Source: Sandaracinus sp. (GTDB taxonomy: Bacteria; Myxococcota_A; Polyangia; Polyangiales; Houyiibacteriaceae). Taken from it: DNA of 64,000 bases. Numbering within the stretch: position 1 is the first letter of the stretch; each line of letters begins with the position of its first letter. The notes under the pieces are model-generated. The model saw nothing but the letters and a program-made list of their open reading frames with translations, was not told the origin of the DNA and searched no databases. The translations under genes and the position numbers were made by a program. The DNA lies in assembly GCA_020633125.1 (NCBI GenBank), contig JACKEH010000003.1, forward strand, positions 27,084 through 91,083, in the 5' to 3' direction. Below, piece after piece: positions 6,999-63,692 of this stretch.

Positions 6999-8134
6999 CG
7001 CACCACCGGTCCGAGCTCGAGGATGCGTCGCTGCCAGGCCGACAGCTCGCGTTGGGGGAACTCGGCCGAGACCCAGAACATCAAGTTCCGGCCGCCGGTC
7101 TCCGCGCATTCCTCCGCCGACACGTCGCCGTCGCCGTCGTCGTCGCGCGAGGCGTCGCACTCGGCCGTGTCGCCGATCGGGTCGTGCTCGGTGCCTTCGG
7201 CTTCGGTGGTGTGAAAGAGGCCGAGCTGGTGACCGAGCTCGTGGGCTGCCGTTTCGGCCATCACGAGCACGTCGACCTCGCCGCCTTCGGTGAGGTGTGG
7301 ATCGACGGCGACCAAGACACCGGCCGAGGCGGCGCCAGGGACCCCGTTCGCGCCGGGAATGCCGCCCGCGATGCCCAGGGTGTCGAGCTCGCCGGTGAAG
7401 CCCTGGATCACGTAGATCGGAATGCGCGAGGGATCGGCCGGTCGGTAGGAGCCGCGCAGCGCCAGGGTCTCCGCGCCGTCGGAGGGCGGGAAGGGATCGC
7501 CGTCGACGGCGGCCGTGGCGACCTCGACGGTGATGGCGAGACCGGTCGCGTCGAGGACCGTCGCGAGCTCGGCGGCCACTTGATCGAGCGTCGCGCCGGG
7601 AAGCTCGGTGGCACCGACGAGCACGAGGTCGACCCGCAACGTACCGCCGGCGGCGCGGCGACGGGAGAGCACGTGAAGGACGCCAGGAGCCGCGCCGGAG
7701 CCGTCGGTCAGAGCCTCGACCCGAAGGCAACCGGGCTCGAGGGCGGAGGTCTCGTTCGTCGGAAAGGCCAACGAAGACGAGTAGTTCCACGTGTGGTAGA
7801 AGGGCGCACGGAGCCCATCGGGGTCGGTGTCGAGGTCGACGAGGCCCCGGTTGTCTTGGCGCACGCTCCAGAAGGCGGTGTAGTCGGTGCCGTCTTCGGC
7901 GACGAGGGCGAGGGCGGTGAGATCGTCGGGCACGACGAGGTCGACGGCCGCGACTCCGTCCGGCCCCCAGGTGAGCGGGAAGGTCTCGCTCGAGGTCGTG
8001 CCGGCGGAGCCGATCGTGGGCGCTTCGGTCGGGCACGCGAGGGGACCCGCATCCGGGAGCGGTTCGGGACCGCCGCCGCCGCCGCCGCAAGCGAGGCCGA
8101 GAGCGATCGAGGCGCGCAGCGCGTGGCGAAGCAC
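6995..8134 (-). CDS. Metzincin-type zinc metalloprotease lipoprotein
   Basis: It has a lipobox (LGLACGG) and the motif HELGHQLGLFH, which fits the HExxHxxGxxH metzincin signature. Confidence 0.8.
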   Translation of the reverse strand: MLRHALRASIALGLACGGGGGGPEPLPDAGPLACPTEAPTIGSAGTTSSETFPLTWGPDGVAAVDLVVPDDLTALALVAEDGTDYTAFWSVRQDNRGLVDLDTDPDGLRAPFYHTWNYSSSLAFPTNETSALEPGCLRVEALTDGSGAAPGVLHVLSRRRAAGGTLRVDLVLVGATELPGATLDQVAAELATVLDATGLAITVEVATAAVDGDPFPPSDGAETLALRGSYRPADPSRIPIYVIQGFTGELDTLGIAGGIPGANGVPGAASAGVLVAVDPHLTEGGEVDVLVMAETAAHELGHQLGLFHTTEAEGTEHDPIGDTAECDASRDDDGDGDVSAEECAETGGRNLMFWVSAEFPQRELSAWQRRILELGPVVR

Positions 8135-8157: not shown

Positions 8158-8838
8158 GTGGCGGCGGTGTCGGTGGGGACGGCGGACGGTGGCGGGGCGG
8201 TGTCGGGTCGGTGGCGGTGGCGGTGTCGGTGGCGGTGTCGGGGGTGTCGGTGGCGGTGTCGGTGGCGGGGCGGTGGCGGTGGCGGTGGCGGTGTCGGTGT
8301 CGGTGGCGGTGGCGGTGTCGGTGGCGGTGTCGGTGGCGGTGTGGCGGTGTCCGTGGCGGTGTCGGTGGCGGTGGCGGTGACGGGCGGTGGCGCCGGTGAC
8401 GGTGACGGTGGCGGTGACGGTGGCGCCGGTGGCAGTGGCGGCGCCTGCCGAACTCCGCGAGCGAAGCGGCAGGGCGCGCTGCGGTCTCGGTCTCCGTCTC
8501 GGTCTCCGTCTCGGTCTCCGTCTCGGTCTCCGTCTCGGTCTCCGTCTCGGTCTCCGTCTCGGTCTCCGTCTCGGTCTCCGTCTCGGTCTCCGTCTCCGTC
8601 TCCGTCTCCGTCTCCGTCTCCGTCTCCATCTCGACTCCACTCCGTCTCCGTCTCACCGACTCTCGGGTCTCGGTCTCCGTCTCGTCTCCGTCTCCGTCTC
8701 CGTCTCCGTCTCCGTCTCGGTCTCCGTCTCCGTCTCCGTCTCCGTCTCCGTCTCCGTCTCCGTCTCCGTCTCCGTCTCGGTCTCCGTCTCGGTCTCCGTC
8801 TCGGTCTCGGTCTCGGTCTCCGTCTCGGTCTCCGTCTG
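8158..8838. repeat. Simple-sequence array: GGTGGCGGTGTC-like units, then (TCTCGGTCTCCG)n and (TCTCCG)n
   Basis: The tandem 6/12-mers are directly visible and fill the divergent intergenic region between starts 8134(-) and 8934(+). TCTCCG is a permutation of the reverse complement of GGAGAC. Confidence 0.9.
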
Positions 8839-13832: not shown

Positions 13833-14165
13833 GTGTCGCGAAGCGATGTCTCCGTCTCCGAGGTCGCGAAGCGACGGCGGCGCAACGCGACGTCTCCGTC
13901 TCTGTCTCCGAGGTCGCGAAGCGACGGAGTCGCAACGCGACGTCTCCGTCTCTGTCTCCGAGGTCGCGAAGCGACGGAGTCGCAACGCGACGTCTCCGTC
14001 TCTGTCTCCGAGGTCGCGAAGCGACGGAGTCGCAACGCGACGTCTCCGTCTCTGTCTCCGAGGTCGCGAAGCGACGGAGTCGCAACGCGACGTCTCTGTC
14101 TCCGTCGACGTCTCCGTCGTCGCGCAGCGACGTCGTCACGAAGCGACGTCCCCGTCTCCGACGCA
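13833..14165. repeat. 50-bp minisatellite, about 5 full and 2 degenerate units, each with two small hairpins
   Basis: The string aggtcgcgaa recurs at 13861, 13911, 13961, 14011 and 14061. Each unit contains GTCGC-GAA-GCGAC (e.g. 13863-13875), GTCGC-AAC-GCGAC (13929-13941) and GTCTCCGTCTCT. Confidence 0.9.
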
Positions 14166-33901: not shown

Positions 33902-33942
33902 CGGTGAGGGTCGGGGAAAGGAGGGGAAGGAAGCAGGAATTG

Positions 33943-34230
33943 GAGACGGTGACGGTGACGGTGACGGTGACGGTGACGGGAGACAGGGACGGGACGGAGA
34001 CAGAGACGGGGACGGAGGAGACGGAGACGGAGACGGAGACGGACGGAGACGGAGACGGAGACGGAGACGGAGACGGAGACGGAGACGGAGACGGAGACGG
34101 AGACGGAGACGGAGACGGAGACGGAGACGGAGACGGAGACGGAGACGGAGACGGAGACGGAGACGGAGACGGAGACGGAGACGGAGACGGAGACGGTGAC
34201 CGAGTCGGAGTCGGGACGGTGTCGGATACC
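33943..34230. repeat. (GACGGT)n then a near-perfect (GGAGAC)n array of about 25 units
   Basis: The repeats are directly visible. A perfect hexamer run extends from about 34047 to 34196, 40-330 bp upstream of the giant gene start. Confidence 0.95.
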
Positions 34231-35159
34231 CAGACGGAGCCGGCGGAGTCGCAAACGCTCGACCACGTCGCCCGAGTCGGCGCGCAGGCCAAGGCCGAGC
34301 ACCGACACCCCACGTACACGTCATCCCGACACTCGCGTCACTCCCACTGCGACGAACATGGTCCGGGTTTCGAAAGGGGCGACCAGCCCCTTCGCCGCGG
34401 AGCACCGCAGGAGACGACCGGAGCGAAGCGAAGCGAGGCTCCGAGGCACGGAGGGGAAGGGGGAGGCAGAGCCTCCCCAAGCGGGCGGTAGGCGCGCAGG
34501 CGAAGCCGAGCACCGCAGCCCTGCACACCGCCCGCAGCCCTGCACACCGCCGCCGCTCGCGATCCATCGATCCCACTCTCGCGCCCACGAGCCGTGTGCC
34601 GAAGCATGAAGGCTCGCCGTGGAGGCGAAGACGGTTGCCGAGGGGAGTGGGTGGCAAGCCACCGTGGGTTCACGAAGGCGATCGCTCGCTCGTTCGCCGA
34701 AGCGAACGTCCCGCTGGATGCTCCCGGCACGGCGAGCCGTGCGCGGGTGGACGAGGAGCATCCGGGTACCGCGCCAGGCGGCTCCCACCGGAGAAGCCCT
34801 CGTGACGACGCGGTCTTCGGTGGCGCCTTCCGAAGAAGACGCCGGGCACGTCCTCGCGCTCCGAAGAACGCGACCACGCACCGAATCACCCCTGGCTCGC
34901 GCGACGAACGCGCGATCGATGGACCCCGAGCGGAGGCCGTGACGATCACCGAGTGATCGCTCGCAGGACCGACGTCTTCGATCACGACACACGAAGCGCG
35001 TCGAAAACGAAGGCGGGGGTCAGTCGCTCGTGGCGCCTCCGAAGTCGGAGGGGACGCGAGCGCGGCTGGTGCTCGAGAGCGTTTCTCTCATGTGCGTCGT
35101 CCCTCCTTTCGTGGAGGCGCGGGACTGGTAAGTCGCGAGGAAGGAGGGTCAAGGGAAGG

Positions 35160-35790
35160 ATTGGCGATCGGTGGCCCTGGCGTTGGCGCTGGCGGTGGCT
35201 GTGGCGGTGGCGCTGGCGGCGACGGTGACGGTGGCGCTGGCGTTGGCGCGCTGACCTCGGCTTCGCCGAGACCGTGGCAGAGACCGAGACGGCTGCGTTG
35301 CAGCCACCGCCGCTTCACGGCCTCCTCGGCTTCGCCGTGACCGCTGCTGCGCAGCCTCCGCCGCTTCGCGGCCTCCTCGGCTCGGCCGAGACCGCTACAC
35401 GGCCGCTGCGCAGCCTCCGCTTGGCGGCCTCCGTCGCGCGAATCGCCGGGACGCGCAGCGTGAACTCCGTCTCAGCTCCGTCGCGCGAAGCGCGGGGACG
35501 CGCAGCGTCGACTCCGTCTCTGCCTCCGTCGCGCGAAGCGCGGGGACGCGCAGCGTCTGCCTCCGTCGCGCGAAGCGCGGGGACGCGCAGCGTCGTCCCC
35601 GCCTCTGGCTCCGTCGCGCGAAGCGCGGGGACGCGAAGCGTCGTCTCCGTCTCTGCCTCCGTCGCGCGAAGCGCGGGGACGCGCAGCGTCGTCTCCGACT
35701 CTGCCTCCGTCTCCGACTCTGCCTCCGTCTCCGACTCTGCCTCCGTCTCCGTCTCCGTCGCCGTCTCCGGGCACGGGCACGGGCACGCAA
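35160..35790. repeat. Composite repeat block: GGTGGCG-type 6-mers, inverted copy of the 19.4-kb hairpin repeat, six 34-bp double-hairpin units, (GTCTCCGACTCTGCCTCC)3 and (GGCACG)3
   Basis: Hairpins lie at 35256-70, 35292-304, 35343-55, 35360-72 and 35376-90. The unit CTCCGTCGCGCGAAGCGCGGGGACGCGCAGCGTC occurs six times between about 35430 and 35690. Confidence 0.9.
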
Positions 35791-56295: not shown

Positions 56296-56634
56296 GCGGT
56301 GCATCCGCGGCTCATCACCGAGAACGCGTGCGTCGCGATCACGCGGCGGACGAGCTTTGGCAAGGGCTCCTCTTTCCTTGGGCGGGTCAGGGGATGTGGT
56401 CGAACGTGGTGCGGCGGCGGCGTGGTCGCGCTCGGGCACGACGACGGTCCCCGAAGCCCTCGGGACTCGCCGCACTCCTCGGGCCGTTGTCACCAACGAA
56501 CGTCACGCGGCGCGAGCTCCGCGACCAGCGACCGACGCCGGGGAGAAGGGGCGCGCCGTCGTGCTTCGCACGCGTGAGCGATTGGAGCACGACGGCGTCG
56601 GCGGCGTCGTCGGAACAACGACCCACCCGAGTGA
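56296..56634 (+). pseudogene. Internal-deletion, frameshifted derivative of the HUH gene (copy A)
   Basis: 56296 to about 56436 aligns with 57804 to about 57945 of the full copy. About 56437-56634 aligns with about 59020-59216, so roughly 1.07 kb is missing. It also has a 1-nt deletion (ggctcctc versus ggcttcctc). Confidence 0.75.
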
Positions 56635-56838
56635 CTTCAGACCGCCTGAAAAGGCGTCGCGCGGCCCGGAACCAGCCCGAGCCGCGCGTCGGTGTATCCG
56701 GCGTTCGACGGAGTTTCGAACCCGACGCGAGAATCCGCGCTCAGCGGACCGCGCGCGGCGCACGACGCGAGTGACACCGACCACGCGGAACGCCGGTTGG
56801 AAACGGGGAGTCGCCACGTACCTCGTACCGGAGTCGGT
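56635..56838 (+). repeat. 3' module copy M1 (most diverged)
   Basis: It begins CTTCAGACCGCCTGAAAAGGCG directly after the TGA and ends …GTCGCCACGTACCTCGTACCGGAGTCGGTG. Confidence 0.8.
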
Positions 56839-56998
56839 GGGATGCGGCGCGGCCCGCCGGTGGTGCGTGGCGGGCACAGCGTGAGGCTTTCACCACATCC
56901 AAGGATCGCTTGGGGCCCATCGCTGCGACCCACCCGCCGCATTTGCGCCATTTGCGTCTGCTGCGGGACCGGCACACCGGGTGCTAAGGCGCCGGAAC

Positions 56999-57505
56999 AT
57001 GAACCACAGATCATCCATCAGTCTCTCTGCTCTCCTCTGCACGCTGCTCTTCGTCGGCTGCGGTTCTTCGACTCCCAGCGTCGAGGAGTCGGCGGCCCTT
57101 TTCTGCGAGGGCGACTCGGCCCGCGCCGAACGCTGCGGGGACGGCGCTTTCGGGCCCGACGACCTCGCCGAATGCGAGGCCGAGATGACGGTGTTCTTCC
57201 GGTCGGCGCGGGAGGACGCGCACGACGCGATCACCGACTGCAACTCTTCGCGCGCATGCGACGAGAGCGACGACCGCTGCTTCTCGGCGGCGGGCCTCGG
57301 CCTCACGCCGAGCTCGACGGCGACCGAGTATCAGACGGCGTGCCTCGCTTACCGCGAGACATGCGACGGCATGGGTGAGGGCATCATCGACGACTACTGC
57401 TTCGCCGACATCCTCGACGATTCGGTCCTCACCCAGATGCGCTCCTGCCTGAGCGGCGCCTGCTCCGACTTCCACGACTGTGTGGAAACGGCCGCCGGCT
57501 TTTGA
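56999..57505 (+). CDS. Cys-rich lipoprotein, 168 aa
   Basis: The start is ATG 56999. It has a lipobox (LLFVGCGSS) and about 12 Cys. Confidence 0.7.
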   Translation: MNHRSSISLSALLCTLLFVGCGSSTPSVEESAALFCEGDSARAERCGDGAFGPDDLAECEAEMTVFFRSAREDAHDAITDCNSSRACDESDDRCFSAAGLGLTPSSTATEYQTACLAYRETCDGMGEGIIDDYCFADILDDSVLTQMRSCLSGACSDFHDCVETAAGF

Positions 57506-57806
57506 TCGCCTCTGCTCGCGGCGGACCTTTCGCGCGCCGAGCTCGGTCCTCGACTCTCACACGGAGTTCACCGTGATCGATTCGGTGGGACGGCTCTTCG
57601 GCGTACGGGCGGGGCTCGTGAGGGACAAGACGTCGGTGCTCGAGGGCCGGTGACAGCACACGCGAAGGTGGCGAGATCTGACCACCGGGCGCGAGTCCGG
57701 GGTGGCGGCCGCCACCTCTTCGCCGCCAATCCGCCGCCACCTCGCTCGTAGGTGCGCGAAATCGTTCGCGCGCGCGCCGGTACGAAAGGTGGAGTGGGTG
57801 GGCGCG

Positions 57807-59216
57807 GTGCATCCGCGGCTCATCACCGAGAACGCGTGCGTCGCGATCACGCGGCGGACGAGCTTTCGTAAGGGCTTCCTCTTTCCTTGGGCGGGGTCGG
57901 GGGATGCGGTCGAGCGAGGTGCGGCGGCGGCGTGGTCGCGCTCGGACGCGACGACGGCGCGATGGGATGCGGTCGGTCAGCTCTTCGCGTACTCGGCGGG
58001 CCTCGCGCAGCGCGCGACCGGTCTCGATTGGCACCAGCTCGTGCTCGTCGGCACGCACCATCACAGCCAAGCCACGCCGCGCGATCGGGAGCTCGCGGAG
58101 AGCACGCGGGTGCTGCATCGAACGATGGCGTGCGCGATCAACGCGCAGCTACGGATGCGCGGCTTCGACGCGCCGGGTTCGGTCTGGGACAAACGGCAGA
58201 CGCATTGGACGACGCTCGTCGACGTGGAGGCGGTCGGGTCGCGGCTCCTCTACGACCACCTCAACTGCGTGCGGGCGGGTTGGGTCGAGCATCCGCTCGA
58301 CGTGCCCATGGGACATCACCTCGGCTTCGAGCTGTGGAAGGCGGGTGGCGTCGCGGTGCCCAAGCCGGACAACCCGTATTTCTCGAAGCGGATGCCGAAG
58401 GAGATCGAGCTTCGGCTCACGCCGCCGATCCCGCTGGTGCGGAAGTTTGGGCGCGATGTCGACGCGATGGTGGCGTGGCTCTCCGAGCTGCGCGAAGTGC
58501 GTCGGAAGGTGCTCATGGCGGCGCGTGTCGGGCTCGTGCGTGGCGTCGCGAAGATGCGGCGCGTGCATCCGTGGGACGAGCCCGACACGGACAAGGAGAC
58601 CATTGGTCGGCGCGTGAAGATCTTCGGCGTCGGTCAGGGTGGACCCGAAGGGGAGCAGACGCGACGCGCGTGCGAGCGCGACGTTCGCGGTCATCGAGAA
58701 GGCCACGCGGCTCGCGTCGTGGCGTGGAAAGACGGCGACCACACGAGTCCCTTTCCTGCGGGCACGTTGCTCGGGCACACGTTCCTCGGGATGCCGCTCG
58801 CGCCCGCGTCGTCGGATGCGGTGCTCGGCACGCGTCACCCGTCGCGCGAGGAAGTCGAAGCCGAGTTGGCCGCGGAGTGGGCGGCGCGGGAGCGCGAGGA
58901 AGAAGAGAACCGTGCGCGTCGACGTGTGCGGGCGGAACGCCGTGCCCGCGCTGCACGAATCGCCGAAGACGACGCGTTCGAGCGTGAGCTCGAGGCGTTG
59001 CAGCAACGCGTGCGTGTGATGGACCCCAACCGAAAGGCCTCGGGGATGGGAGCGCTCCTCGAGCCACTCGCTCCGTCGAACGTCACGCGGCGCGAGCTCG
59101 GCGACGCACGACCCGACGTGGGGGAGAAGGGGCGCGCCATCGTGCTTCGCACCCGTGAGCGACCGAAGCCGCGTCGGCGTCGGCGGCGTCGTCGGAACAA
59201 CGACCCACCCGAGTGA
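57807..59216 (+). CDS. Y1-HUH transposase-like protein (IS200/REP-associated tyrosine transposase fold) with a long C-terminal extension
   Basis: It has an N-terminal …ITRRTSFRKGFLFP segment. The HUH-type motif is LVLVGTHHHS. The segment G.VWDKR…LVDVEAVGSRLLYDHLNCVRAGWVEHP matches the catalytic-Tyr helix layout of Y1 transposases. GTG 57807 is the first start inside the repeated unit; GTGs at 57789 and 57798 lie outside it. Confidence 0.7.
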   Translation: MHPRLITENACVAITRRTSFRKGFLFPWAGSGDAVERGAAAAWSRSDATTARWDAVGQLFAYSAGLAQRATGLDWHQLVLVGTHHHSQATPRDRELAESTRVLHRTMACAINAQLRMRGFDAPGSVWDKRQTHWTTLVDVEAVGSRLLYDHLNCVRAGWVEHPLDVPMGHHLGFELWKAGGVAVPKPDNPYFSKRMPKEIELRLTPPIPLVRKFGRDVDAMVAWLSELREVRRKVLMAARVGLVRGVAKMRRVHPWDEPDTDKETIGRRVKIFGVGQGGPEGEQTRRACERDVRGHREGHAARVVAWKDGDHTSPFPAGTLLGHTFLGMPLAPASSDAVLGTRHPSREEVEAELAAEWAAREREEEENRARRRVRAERRARAARIAEDDAFERELEALQQRVRVMDPNRKASGMGALLEPLAPSNVTRRELGDARPDVGEKGRAIVLRTRERPKPRRRRRRRRNNDPPE

Positions 59217-59426
59217 CTTCAGACCGCCTGAAAAGGCGTCGCGCGGCCCGGAACCAGCCCGAGCCGCGCGTCGGTGTGTCCGTCGTTCGGGCGGGTTTCG
59301 AGGGTGGCGAGAGAATCCGTTCTGAGCGGACCGCCTCCCGCGCGAGAGGTGGTTGACCTCTCACCGACCACGGCGGAACGCCGGTGTGAAACCGGGAGTC
59401 GCCACGTACCTCGTACCGTAGTCGTC
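59217..59426 (+). repeat. 3' module copy M2
   Basis: It contains the stem CGCGCGGC (59240-47) / GCCGCGCG (59263-70), the hairpins GAGAGGT-GGTTG-ACCTCTC, GGCG-GAA-CGCC and CCGG-TGTGAAA-CCGG (59381-95), and the terminal GTACCTCGTACCGTAGTCGTC. Confidence 0.85.
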
Positions 59427-59994
59427 AGGGGAGCAGACGCGGCGCGCCTGCGAGCGCGACGTTCGCGGTCATCGAGAAGGCCACGCGGCTCGCGTCGTGG
59501 CGTGGAAAGACGGCGACCACACGAGCCCCTTTCCGGCGGGCACGTTGCTCGGACACACGTTCCTCGGGATGCCGCTCGCGCCCGCGTCGTCGGATGCGGT
59601 GCTCGGCACGCGTCACCCGTCGCGCGAGGAAGTCGAAGCCGAGTTGGCCGCGGAGTGGGCGGCGCGGGAGCGCGAGGAAGAAGAGAACCGTGCGCGTCGA
59701 CGTGTGCGCAACGAACGCCGTGCCCGCGCTGCACGAATCGCCGAAGACGAAGCTTTCGAGCGTGAGCTCGAGGCGTTGCAGCAACGCGTGCGTGTGATGG
59801 ACCCCAACCGAAAGGCCTCGGGGATGGGAGCGCTCCTCGAGCCACTCGCTCCGTCGAACGTCACGCGGCGCGAGCTCGGCGACGCACGACCCGACGTGGG
59901 GGAGAAGGGGCGCGCCGTCGTGCTTCGCACCCGTGAGCGACCGAAGCCGCGTCGGCGTCGGCGGCGTCGTCGGAACAACGACCCACCCGAGTGA
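59427..59994 (+). pseudogene. 5'-truncated HUH gene copy C (last ~189 codons)
   Basis: It aligns with 58649-59216, with about a dozen substitutions by eye. It starts immediately after the M2 terminal motif. Confidence 0.8.
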
Positions 59995-60236
59995 CTTCAG
60001 ACCGCCTGAAAAGGCGTCGCGCGGCCCGGAACCAGCCCGAGCCGCGCGTCGGTGTGTCCGTCGTTCGGGCGGGTTTCGAGGGTGGCGAGAGAATCCGTTC
60101 TGAGCGGACCGCCTGCCGCGCGAGACGTGGTTGACCTCTCACCGACCACGGCGGAACGCCGGTGTGAAACCGGGAGTCGCCACGTACCTCGTACCGTAGT
60201 CGTCCGCGAGGACACGTACCTCGTACCGTAGTCGTG
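59995..60236 (+). repeat. 3' module copy M3 plus an extra 32-bp solo terminal motif
   Basis: M3 ends at 60204. The sequence CGCGAGGACACGTACCTCGTACCGTAGTCGTG follows at 60205-60236. Confidence 0.85.
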
Positions 60237-60471
60237 CCGGAACAACGACCCACCCGAGTGACTTCAGACCGCCTGAAAAGGCGTCGCGCGGCCCGGAACC
60301 TGCCCGAGCCGCGCGTCGGTGTGTCCGTCGTTCGGGCGGGTTTCGAGGGTGGCGAGAGAATCCGTTCTGAGCGGACCGCCCGCCGTGCGAGACGTGGTTG
60401 ACCTCTCACCGACCTCGGCGGAACGCCGGTGTGAAACCGGGAGTCGCCACGTACCTCGTACCGTAGTCGTG
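60237..60471 (+). repeat. 25-bp gene tail (last 8 codons plus TGA) followed by 3' module copy M4
   Basis: CCGGAACAACGACCCACCCGAGTGA occupies 60237-60261. A full module follows, ending CGTAGTCGTG at 60471. Confidence 0.85.
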
Positions 60472-61515
60472 TCGGGTTCCGTTTGGGACAAACGGCAGAC
60501 GCATTGGAAGACCCTCGTCGACGTCGAGGCGGTCGGGTCGCGGCTCGTGTACGACCACCTCAACTGCGTCGGGGCGGGGTGGGTGGAGCATCCGCTCGAC
60601 GTGCCGATGGGGCATCACCTCGGCTTCGAGCTCTGGAAGGCGGGCGGGGTCGCGGTGCCGAAGCCCGACAATCCGTATTTCTCGAAGCGCATGCCCAAGG
60701 AGATCGAGCTTCGGCTCACGCCGCCCATTCCGCTGGTGCGGAAGTTCGGGGGCGACGTCGACGCCATGGTCGGGTGGCTCTCCGAGGTGCGTGACGCGCG
60801 GTTGAAGGTGCTGGCCGCGGCGCGTGTGGGGCCCGTGCGTGGCGTCGCGAAGATGCGGCGCGTGCATCCGTGGGACGAGCCCGACACCGACAAGGAGACC
60901 ATCGGGCGGCGCGTGAAGGTGTTCGGGGTCGGACAGGGCGGGCCCGAAGGGGAGCAGACGCGACGGGCCTGCGAGCGCGACGTTCGCGGTCATCGTGAAG
61001 GGCACGCGGCTCGCGTCGTGGCGTGGAAGGACGGCGACCACACGAGCCCTTTCCCTCCGGGCACGTTGCTCGGGCACACGTACCTCGGCATGCCGCTCGC
61101 GGCGGCGTCGTCGGATGCGGTGCTCGGGACGCGGCATCCTTCGCGAGAGGAAGTCGAAGCGGAGCTCGCCGCGGAGTGGGCCGCGCGGGAGCGCGAGGAA
61201 GAGACGCGTCGTACGCGTGGACGCATCCGCGCCGAACGCCGAGAGCGCGCCGCGCGAGTCGCCGATGACGAAGCGTTCTCGCGCGAGCTCGAGGCGCTGC
61301 AACAACGCGTGCGTGTGATGGACCCGACGCGAAAGCGCTCGGGCCTCACGGGACTCCTCGAGCCACTCACACCCTCGAAGGTCGTGCGCCGAGAGCTCGG
61401 CGACCAACGACCCGACGTCGAAGAAAAGGGGCGCGCCGTCGTGCTTCGCACGCGTGAGCGCCAAGCGTCGCGGCCGCGTCGTCGGCGCCGTCGGAACAAC
61501 GACCCACCCGAGTGA
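60472..61515 (+). pseudogene. 5'-truncated HUH gene copy D (lacks the HUH motif; starts at ~codon 123)
   Basis: It aligns with 58174-59216 of the full copy with clearly more divergence than copy C. It starts immediately after the M4 terminal motif. The track ORF 60319..61515 reads through from the module. Confidence 0.8.
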
Positions 61516-61854
61516 CCTCAGACCGCCTGAGAAGGCGTCGCGCGGCACGGAACCAGCCCGAGCCGCGCGTCGGTGTATCCGTCGTTTGGTCGGGTTTCGA
61601 GGGTGCCGAGAGAATCCGTTCTCAGCGGACCGCACGCGGCGCGAGACTCGACTGACACCTCACCGACCACGGCGGAACGCCGGGGTGAACCCGGGAGTCG
61701 CCACGTACCTCGTACCGTAGTCGTTCGCGCGGCGCGAGACTCGACTGACACCTCACCGACCACGGCGGAACGCCGGGGTGAACCCGGGAGTCGCCACCTA
61801 CCTCGTACCGTAGTCGTGTGACGTGCGTGCCGCGTACCTAGTACGGTAGTCGTG
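61516..61854 (+). repeat. 3' module copy M5, a 94-bp partial re-duplication, and a variant solo terminal motif
   Basis: M5 ends at 61724. Positions 61725-61818 repeat its last ~94 bp. Positions 61819-61854 end in the variant GTACCTAGTACGGTAGTCGTG. Confidence 0.85.
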
Positions 61855-61925
61855 ACCGAGCCGCGTATCTGTCTTGCGATCTACTGTGCGTCGGTTCAGC
61901 ATTCGCAGGCTCTCGAGGGACAACC

Positions 61926-63692
61926 ATGAACTTCATCGCGAACGAGACGCCTGAGAAACTCCGCGGCGGTTACTACACCGACCCGGCTATCGCAAGCTAC
62001 CTAGCCCGTTGGGCCCTGGCCAAGCCTGCGGCGCACGTCCTGGAGCCTAGCTGCGGCGACGGGGCGTTCCTCACAGCACTCGGATCGCTCCGTTCAGACC
62101 GATTGAAGTCACTCACGGCTTGCGAACTCGTGCCCGCGGAGGCCGCAAAGGCGCGCGAGCGACTACCCAAACGTCGTGGTTGTTCTACCGAGGTGATCTG
62201 CGACGATTTTCTTCGCTGGGCACAAGACGGCCCTGGAATGGTCCCTCGCTTCGACGCGATTGTCGGCAATCCCCCGTTTATCCGCTATCAGTACCTCACG
62301 CCAGAATCCCAGCATCGTGCGGCGGCTATCTTCGCCACACTAGATCTGCCCTTCACGAAACACACAAACGCTTGGGTGCCTTTCGTGTTGGCTTCACTTT
62401 CGCTTCTACGGCCCGGCGGCCGCTTGGCGATGGTGGTTCCCTCCGAGCTGCTACACGTTCTGCATGCGCAGGCGGTCCGAACACACCTCCTTCGGACGTG
62501 TTCACGAGTGGTCGTCCTTGACCCCGAAGACATCTGGTTTCGCGGCACCCTTCAGGGCGTTGTATTGCTCCTCGCCGAGCGCGCTCTCACTCCATCGTCC
62601 GCGGACGTCGCCGTGGTTCGGATACAGGGGAGTCCTTCAAATCTCCCCGAACCAGAAGCACTGTTCGCAAACACACCCGTCGTTCCAGGCAAGACTTTGG
62701 AACGAAAGTGGACACTCGCTCTTCTCGATGACCACGAACGAACGCTTCTAGACGATTTGTCAAATCGCCGGGGATTCTCTCGATTTGGCCAAGTCGCGAA
62801 CGCATCGGTAGGAATCGTTACCGGAGCAAATCAATTCTTCCTTGTACCAGATGCAACAGTCGAAGAATTTGGTCTTGAGCAATTCGCGCACGCGATGTTC
62901 GGGCGCAGCGACCACGTTGACGGTGTTATCTATGACACCGCCCAACATGAACGGAATCGTCGCTCGGGTCGACCAACAAACTTCCTGTGGTTTAGCGACG
63001 AGGATACAAAGAAGACACTGCCATCCGGTGCACTTCGATATATTGAGCGAGGTGAAGTCGACCAACTTCACACCCGGTTCAAGTGTCGAATCAGGTCTCC
63101 CTGGTACGCAGTCCCTTCGGTGTTCACAGCCCCAGTTGGGATGCTCAAGCGGTCGCACGATTTTCCTCGACTTGTTCTCAATAAGGTTGGCGCATTCACT
63201 ACCGACACCGCGTACAGAGTGACACCTAAGAATGGAATCTCAGCCGGCGCGCTAGTCCACACGTTTGTTAACAGTCTCACTGCGCTTTCCGCAGAACTTG
63301 AAGGGCGCCACTATGGGGGAGGCGTGCTGGAACTCGTTCCCTCAGAGATCGCACGTTTGGTGCTCCCACCCGTGGCAGGAAATGGACGTGAACTCAAAGC
63401 TCTCAACAGCGAGATGTCAGAGCGAACGCTGTCAGCAGAGGCCTTGCTTGCCCGTGGAGACGCACGAGTCCTCGCAGAGATACTCCGCCCATCCGAGCGA
63501 GAAGCGTTGGCCGGGGCTTGGACGAGACTACGTCGACGGCGACAAAGGGTAGCTGGTCAACACGAGCCGGATGAAACGGTACGATCACACGATCTCGAGC
63601 GCAAAGTCGGACCTTCCACCAGGCGGAAGCGAGTACAGCCTCAACTCTCTCTTGGTTACGTCGACTTGGGTGCGGAGCACGGCGGTGAATGA
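61926..63692 (+). CDS. N6-adenine DNA methyltransferase (Eco57I/TaqI-like, gamma class) with a C-terminal target-recognition domain
   Basis: Motif I is LEPSCGDGAFL. Motif IV is IVGNPPFIRYQ, with NPPF at 62268-62279. The gene lies in a region of visibly lower G+C. Confidence 0.85.
   Translation: MNFIANETPEKLRGGYYTDPAIASYLARWALAKPAAHVLEPSCGDGAFLTALGSLRSDRLKSLTACELVPAEAAKARERLPKRRGCSTEVICDDFLRWAQDGPGMVPRFDAIVGNPPFIRYQYLTPESQHRAAAIFATLDLPFTKHTNAWVPFVLASLSLLRPGGRLAMVVPSELLHVLHAQAVRTHLLRTCSRVVVLDPEDIWFRGTLQGVVLLLAERALTPSSADVAVVRIQGSPSNLPEPEALFANTPVVPGKTLERKWTLALLDDHERTLLDDLSNRRGFSRFGQVANASVGIVTGANQFFLVPDATVEEFGLEQFAHAMFGRSDHVDGVIYDTAQHERNRRSGRPTNFLWFSDEDTKKTLPSGALRYIERGEVDQLHTRFKCRIRSPWYAVPSVFTAPVGMLKRSHDFPRLVLNKVGAFTTDTAYRVTPKNGISAGALVHTFVNSLTALSAELEGRHYGGGVLELVPSEIARLVLPPVAGNGRELKALNSEMSERTLSAEALLARGDARVLAEILRPSEREALAGAWTRLRRRRQRVAGQHEPDETVRSHDLERKVGPSTRRKRVQPQLSLGYVDLGAEHGGE

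Follow-up and report, generated by a model that had tools for sequence, protein, structure and literature searches.

A head-to-tail nest of tail-anchored partial copies in Sandaracinus, and the undescribed family of Y1-HUH insertion sequences to which it belongs

How an intact transposase-like gene comes to be followed by a row of partial copies that all share its 3' end and start at different points within it is the question raised by a locus (positions 56296 to 61854) in the 64,000 nucleotides (nt) of contig JACKEH010000003.1 (positions 27,084 to 91,083 of the forward strand; assembly GCA_020633125.1) that were analysed here and are referred to as the window. The contig belongs to a metagenome-assembled genome of Sandaracinus sp., with a guanine and cytosine (GC) content of 68-70% in this region. 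A first-pass annotation had read the locus as a nest of one Y1-HUH gene, and had suggested an end-anchored mechanism that leaves abortive products next to the element's own terminal motif. The copies in the nest belong to an insertion-sequence family that is undescribed so far and restricted to Sandaracinaceae, with a Y1-HUH enzyme of about 470 amino acids (aa). The tail-anchored habit is a rule of the whole family and not a peculiarity of the window, and its recurrence in related genomes suggests a mode of copying or insertion that is unusual for this class of enzyme.

With respect to the layout of the array, which was established by BLAST of copy B against the window, with a repeat finder and by direct reading of the letters, the intact element B is followed by six units in the same orientation, ranging from 32 to 1254 nt and each ending in the 20-mer GTACCTCGTACCGTAGTCGT or a close variant of it, and an internally deleted copy A lies 0.8 kb upstream of B on the same strand (Table 1). 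The head-to-tail arrangement with constant 3' and variable 5' ends was thereby confirmed, both by the BLAST matches of B (C, 59427-60203, 98%; D, 60231-60470, 97%; E, 60473-61724, 87%; F, 61732-61817, 88%) and by the count of the 20-mer. All units listed beforehand were recovered, whereas the three small units C', F and G had been overlooked. Unit D is in effect a solo right-end module, and the CGG form found in mini-unit G is typical of other subfamilies. In copy A, codons 1 to about 50 (56296-56447, 93% identical to B by BLAST) are joined to the last 380 nt or so (56454-56837, with 83% identity over 56454-56836), which are closed by the variant 20-mer GTACCTCGTACCGGAGTCGG; weak similarity to the 5' untranslated region might extend this copy backwards to about 56245. 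The array is the largest nest seen in the family.

Table 1. Units of the array and parts of the intact element B, in window coordinates
Feature	Positions	Strand	Length	Description
Unit A	56296-56837	+	542 nt	diverged, with internal deletion; without left-end palindrome
Unit B	~57620/57700 to 59425	+	~1.7-1.8 kb	intact element; open reading frame (ORF) 57807-59216
B, left-end region	57620-57806	+		5' non-coding; palindrome GTGGCGGCCGCCAC (57702-57715), then CGCCGCCAATCCGCCGCCAC
B, transposase gene	57807-59216	+	468 aa after start codon	GTG start
B, right-end module	59217-59425	+		3' non-coding; terminal 20-mer at 59406-59425
Unit C	59426-60203	+	778 nt	from ~codon 281; 98-99% identical to B; frame open to stop codon
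Mini-unit C'	60204-60235	+	32 nt	10 unrelated nt (CCGCGAGGAC), then final 22 nt of tail
Unit D	60236-60470	+	235 nt	last 8 codons and whole 3' module; 97-98% identical to B/C
Unit E	60471-61724	+	1254 nt	from ~codon 123; 87% identical to B; 347 codons open
Unit F	61725-61817	+	93 nt	final ~90 nt of tail; 99% identical to end of E, 88% to B
Mini-unit G	61818-61853	+	36 nt	16 unrelated nt, then variant 20-mer GTACCTAGTACGGTAGTCGT

With up to three mismatches allowed, the 20-mer occurs eight times in the window, always on the + strand and always within the array, as compared to 0.01 occurrences expected by chance; the 10-nt core TACCTCGTAC is likewise confined to the array within the 64 kb (0.7 chance matches expected). 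Units C, D, E and F begin to match their source 0-2 nt past the preceding 20-mer, and this is also the usual number of unassignable bases at a junction, the mini-units C' and G having 10 and 16, respectively. The statement that each truncated unit starts on the base after the terminal motif is thus correct to within 0-2 nt, but does not hold for the mini-units, which open with 10-16 unrelated nucleotides. Base 21, which had been included in the motif as G or C, varies across the junctions (C, C, G, G, T, G, G) and lies outside it.

The assignment of the enzyme to the Y1-HUH proteins was upheld by remote-homology profiles and structure comparison, but not by Pfam. No Pfam family matches the window protein or any of 26 family members and, in particular, PF01797, the family proposed for checking the assignment, matches neither the window protein nor, even at an expectation value (E) of <=10, any of the 26. 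Searches of PHROGs with the full protein, as well as single-sequence and family-profile searches of the PDB, returned nothing useful, and in an hhalign comparison with a single E. coli RayT sequence the tyrosine motif alone was aligned (E = 0.13). The NCBIfam model REP_Tyr_transpos (NF047646) matches seven of the 26 members over a span from the HUH motif to the tyrosine with a best E of 2.5e-5, its score of 21.2 bits lying far under the cut-off of 80. A profile of the N-terminal 215 residues, searched against 1.84 billion representatives, recovered 238 clusters, mostly of proteins of 400-450 aa, and the superfamily alignment (74 sequences) displays the pattern N-H-x-H ... Y-x-x-x-N-P-V-A-A-G-L-V with H83, H85 and Y148 nearly invariant. 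Among more distant members of about 300 aa, six out of ten have sub-threshold matches to PF01797 (17-22 bits versus a cut-off of 23). Compared with solved structures, the profile of the 74 sequences matches E. coli TnpA-REP (4er8) at E = 9e-5, with HUH motif and tyrosine aligned, and also ISDra2 TnpA at E = 0.03. An AlphaFold (AF2) model of residues 1-215, computed from the superfamily alignment, has a predicted local distance difference test (pLDDT) score of 90.9; in a Foldseek search of the PDB it retrieved TnpA-REP first (E = 1.7e-6), and the remaining 29 of the top 30 matches are all Y1 transposases (IS608, ISDra2, Sulfolobus and IS200).

Residues 1-215 thus constitute a Y1-HUH domain with H83-H84-H85 and Y148, for which profile and model together support a predicted transposase fold closest to that of RayT, and the enzyme represents a new and strongly diverged branch within the IS200/IS605-RayT superfamily. 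The rest of the protein, residues 216-468, is an extension specific to the family. It comprises a predicted long helix and a basic tail, terminates in a conserved NDPP(E/A), and carries further conserved motifs that include HPWDEP and WK-GD--S-FP-G. This extension has no detectable relatives, and as the full-length AF2 model was unusable (pLDDT 46), the C-terminal 250 aa are without a fold. All 53 close homologues out of 53 come from bins or metagenomes of Sandaracinus or other Polyangiales and are annotated as hypothetical. The protein P0057 at locus L048 (about 45% identical) was tried as a comparison and proved uninformative, being single copy with unrelated ends.

Comparison with the related loci, designated here by L numbers and with their junctions read manually, also defines the ends of the element. 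Position 57807, taken at first for the beginning of the full copy, is the GTG start of the gene, and the family left end reaches 105 nt or more beyond it on the upstream side: 17 of 17 related loci show conserved non-coding sequence on the 5' side of the ORF, some 110 nt or longer and including the palindrome, and the ORF start (M/V)HPRL is common to all loci. The left boundary of B was placed between about 57620 and 57700. At the other end, the 3' module has a constant length across the family, 233-236 nt from the last 8 codons. Within it the core TACCTCGTA is absolutely invariant in 21 right ends and lies 10-14 nt before a sharply defined terminus, being followed by CGG(T) and then by a subfamily-specific tail of 6-10 nt. 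The left end compared with the reverse-complemented right end scored no better than shuffled sequences, giving no sign of terminal inverted repeats, and target duplications did not exceed chance, the longest flank match at seven loci being 5-7 nt with the left boundary approximate. Palindromes or hairpins are present at both ends, namely at 57702-57715 and, before the tail, as CCGGTGTGAAACCGG. Tail-like motifs occur upstream of the left ends in L001, L002, L012, L020 and L022, and in several loci they lie 24-95 nt ahead of the palindrome.

Covariation is clear in the proximal 3' module alone. The first 90 nt or so of this module (59198-59290 in the window, and the equivalent stretches in 20 other copies) are highly conserved, overlap the last 8 codons and contain 30 predicted base pairs, four of them with compensatory changes; they have no Rfam match and are a candidate for an enzyme-binding DNA site or an RNA element. 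In several copies, a short direct repeat flanks the invariant core (window 56800-56837 and 59388-59425; L009 7575-7620), reading GGAGTCG-CCAC-GTACCTCGTACC-GGAGTCG in copy A, and the tail itself may have been built from an older reiteration.

The family is multi-copy, with 11 and 6 loci in two genome bins, many of them at contig ends. Tail fragments in the same orientation stand directly behind the right end in at least 16 of the roughly 22 non-redundant loci that extend to it; their sizes run from 9 nt up to over 480 nt, units of 9-30 nt being far more numerous than long ones. Thus, L018 has a 95-nt unit and, behind it, a truncated copy in which the ORF resumes at about codon 345, and at L022 the tail of a truncated copy of 0.5 kb abuts the left end of another, full copy. 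At the short end of the range are the units of 24, 15 and 13 nt at L033 and the 9-nt reiterations at L050/L051, and further tail-anchored units are found at L008, L009, L011, L015, L024, L025, L031, L038, L043, L052 and L053. At L043 and L052 the units derive from another subfamily than the element ahead of them. L025, L053/L054 and L055 represent one and the same chromosomal insertion, as shown by the same flanking genes and flank sequence; since this single site carries different arrays in different metagenomes, units are evidently gained or lost within populations. The recurrence in independent assemblies and the foreign-subfamily unit at L043 thus support the earlier proposal of an end-anchored mechanism with insertion beside the element's own terminal motif. 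At L051 (4733-4871) a stretch of 67 nt of host DNA, the end of the upstream gene, is duplicated in tandem, ending at GGTCGTCG just before the left end, and this duplication is anchored in the same manner, albeit on the left flank.

The units of the window also differ in their divergence. B and C are 99% identical, C and D 98% and E and F 99%, in contrast to 87-91% between B and E and about 82% between A and all other units, so that the earlier remarks on the divergence of the copies hold. Two groups can therefore be distinguished, B/C/D (97-99% identical) and E/F (99%), which are 9-13% apart. Over 347 aligned codons, B and E differ by 73 synonymous and 40 non-synonymous changes, with no insertion or deletion and no stop codon. 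This mostly synonymous divergence implies that most of the differences arose in functional elements under purifying selection before E was truncated, and that E comes from a separate active lineage and did not arise by local duplication of B and subsequent decay. Several events, involving at least two or three lineages (B/C/D; E/F; A and G), are thus recorded in the array, in agreement with the notion of repeated events over time that had been put forward at the outset.

Taken together, we regard it as about an even chance that the elements are a new family of Y1-HUH single-strand transposons in which the right-end terminus is the nick and joining point as well as the preferred target, and in which incomplete insertions and duplications primed from the nick accumulate at this point. 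The transposase would nick one strand exactly at the right-end terminus, after ...GTAGTCGT, and the same kind of sequence would be its preferred insertion site, which implies that new copies, be they of the same element or of diverged relatives, would be joined tail-first beside a resident tail. The tail-like motifs ahead of left ends at L001, L002, L012, L020 and L022 support such a preference for the target. Where the joining of the front end failed, the free 5' part would be lost; alternatively, the nicked 3' end might be extended and then switch template. Either route would yield a 5'-truncated, tail-anchored unit with a precise right junction and a few unassignable bases at the left one, and repeated rounds over time would have built the array. 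The foreign-subfamily units at L043 and L052 and the divergence of the B and E lineages speak for insertion beyond mere local duplication.

A more specific proposal, which we put forward tentatively and consider rather doubtful, is that of a tail-first integration in which the enzyme would join the right end and host replication or repair would complete or lose the rest. This might account for LINE-like 5' truncations and self-targeted nests, and would mean that a relative of RayT, enlarged threefold, follows a pathway distinct from both peel-and-paste transposition and IS91-type rolling circles.

Several observations weigh against the terminus as nick site and target. Neither an exact left boundary nor a consistent rule relating left flank and tail as target could be found when these were sought, the sequence before the left end of L051 is unlike the element's own tail, and the predicted folding energies of the hairpins at the ends are no better than those of shuffled sequence. 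The position of the nick is read from the positions of the junctions only. At L024, L033 and L055 the short duplications take in 5-13 nt of flank and show microhomology, so that slippage without a transposase would suffice to produce them, and tandem repeats are generally abundant in this genome. All data come from short-read metagenome bins, in which the order of the near-identical units C and D could be mis-assembled, and compared to the public contig JACKEF010000013.1 (GCA_020633155.1; L049) the window shows 10 substitutions, albeit no insertions or deletions, five of them inside repeat units. These differences are clustered (57402-57434, 58890-58952 and 60386) and may reflect another polishing version or strain variation.

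The flank-including duplications with microhomology, together with the duplication of host DNA at L051, are also what suggests the template-switch route, and they imply that not every unit need be a product of transposition. The earlier view of the units as abortive products accordingly stands in part, as several of the short reiterations (L024, L033, L055) are ordinary template-switch duplications near the terminus. The mechanistic idea of the first-pass annotation is therefore reasonable, if unproven, and part of the pattern is ordinary duplication associated with a nick or with structure.

Of the alternatives, an unlikely one assumes mobilisation between two nick sites in the style of rolling-circle plasmids, starting at one terminus and stopping at the next, so that any segment between two tails could move as a circle and be pasted behind another tail, the left end being dispensable. 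Such a scheme would agree with the same terminus bounding every unit on both sides, with unit D being equal to the conserved 235-nt 3' module, and with the solo tail fragments that lie in the same orientation 1-3 kb upstream of elements at L002, L014 and L020 and, in the window, as copy A; IS91 has its initiating end, which is constant, downstream of tnpA, while its opposite end varies (PMC13181058). However, no truncated unit was found to recur in identical form at a second site, the interval between A and B (56838-57619) adjoins no other copy, the origin of the first truncated unit would remain unexplained, and the fold is of the IS200 type and not of the IS91 or Rep type.

Slightly less probable still is a graveyard of ordinary insertions, in which full-length elements would have been inserted head to tail behind earlier tails and their fronts deleted later on. 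The full left end directly behind a tail at L022 demonstrates that full-length head-to-tail insertion occurs, and copy A attests to internal deletions. Yet each left breakpoint lies within 0-2 nt of the previous terminus whereas the right one is random, so that a terminus-specific break would still be needed, and units of 9-30 nt are in great excess over long ones.

That the transposase has no role at all, the structured, GC-rich 3' end stalling replication and thereby causing microhomology-mediated tandem duplications, appears improbable, and such slippage is a candidate for the short units only. It would fit the duplications at L024, L033 and L055, the 67 nt of host DNA duplicated ahead of the L051 left end and the many tandem repeats of the genome; the foreign-subfamily units at L043 and L052 and the lineage difference between D and E, however, cannot come from local duplication, and most units have an exact right boundary in common. 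A misassembly of a repeated element, which the use of binned short reads, the many related copies at contig ends and the 10 bases differing from the public contig, some within repeats, might bring to mind, is very improbable indeed, given that the tail-to-internal junctions share no k-mer able to mislead an assembler, that the units differ by substitutions, and that the same architecture is found in NCBI, JGI and ENA assemblies built by different tools, including an identical 28-nt unit in the independent assemblies L053 and L054.

Among known systems, TnpA-REP/RayT (4er8, NF047646) is closest by profile and predicted fold. Like RayT, the enzyme has one HUH motif and one tyrosine in a Y-x-x-x-N-x-V-x-x-G-(W/L)-V helix. 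However, RayT has about 165 aa and is a single-copy, domesticated gene, while the present family has 468 aa and is multi-copy; and whereas inverted REPs, of which there are hundreds of dispersed copies, flank RayT, the motif found here occurs at the element's own tail only and always in direct orientation (in the 64 kb of the window). With IS200/IS605 the family shares the Y1-HUH fold, the unlike ends, the lack of terminal inverted repeats and of above-chance target duplications, and the location of the sense strand on the presumed lagging-strand template: the GC skew of the + strand is positive here, which is weak evidence that the sense strand of the element would be the lagging-strand template, as IS200/IS605 requires. 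Also the tail-like sequence before some left ends recalls the insertion of IS200/IS605 3' of a specific target. In contrast to IS200/IS605, there is neither a match to PF01797 nor a tnpB here. In addition, the IS200/IS605 TnpA is a small, single-domain protein of about 130-160 aa, as opposed to a transposase three times longer with a conserved C-terminal extension of 250 aa, and the terminal sequence that is recognised here seems to be much longer than the tetra- or pentanucleotide of IS200/IS605. Given the sub-threshold scores, the size of the protein and the lack of a single-copy gene with dispersed inverted REPs, the family stands formally outside both IS200/IS605 and REP/RAYT.

In its asymmetry the element resembles IS91/ISCR, which likewise have a constant end downstream of the transposase gene, a variable other end and no target duplication, IS91 using a sequence-specific target and a single-stranded DNA circle as intermediate (PMC13181058). 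However, IS91/ISCR belong to another HUH lineage, whereas here there is no Pfam match and the fold matches solely the IS200 type; and errors of IS91 lengthen the element by read-through past terIS, whereas the units of the nest are shortened. The behaviour of the family thus combines IS200/IS605-like traits with an IS91-like asymmetry.

As to precedents, the first-pass annotation had known of no described element with this layout. Indeed, no description of tail-anchored, 5'-truncated nests was found in the open-access literature for a bacterial Y1 element, but the truncated arrays of Helitrons are comparable, for which tandem truncated insertions and reiterated termini have been documented and explained by circular intermediates, by rolling-circle replication and by self-insertion (PMC5148889, PMC12001565). 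These eukaryotic elements provide the best-documented parallel to the arrays of truncated copies. However, Helitrons encode a fusion of a Y2 Rep with a helicase, AT or TT dinucleotides serve as their insertion sites, and their reiterated termini in Fusarium are 5' ends, in contrast to the 3' tail in the present case. Unlike Helitrons, the enzyme described here has a single conserved tyrosine and no match to a helicase domain.

Y1-HUH transposases are the simplest known enzymes that cut and join single-stranded DNA, and they are being adapted for DNA tagging and genome writing. To our knowledge, it is still not understood how RayT spreads REP sequences. Located between RayT and IS200/IS605, the family is clearly mobile, has a long invariant terminal sequence and leaves behind tail-anchored partial copies, in which reactions that were only half completed at one end are naturally recorded. 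Should the terminus prove to be both nick site and target, the family would show a single-strand transposon homing to its own end and building arrays, and would supply an HUH enzyme with a long recognition site for study. So far its members are annotated merely as 'hypothetical protein' and are missed by Pfam.

With regard to the genomic setting, the interval between A and B is an unrelated 0.8 kb with a gene for a Cys-rich, lipoprotein-like product (56981-57505) that has a lipobox, LLFVGCGSS, and no Pfam match. As this interval adjoins no other copy of the element, the idea of captured cargo was rejected, as was that of a further degraded unit at 61854-61925, since 25 of 500 shuffled sequences scored equally well. 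Neither an Rfam family nor a tRNA was found in the region, and a search of a plasmid collection gave no match. Beginning 72 nt past the array, a gene for an M.Eco57I-like N6-adenine DNA methyltransferase (61926-63692, and onward to 64000) is situated in DNA with a GC content of 57-58%, compared to 68-72% elsewhere; the nest therefore borders on what is probably a foreign island. Between genes, both here and in a related bin, there recur long arrays of two kinds, made up of the hexamer GTCTCC/GGAGAC and of units of 48-50 nt with a GTCGCGAAGCGAC hairpin (8187-8837, 13835-14161, 33942-34243 and 35169-35769 in the window; 7850-8000 at L003), and they look like a separate repeat family.

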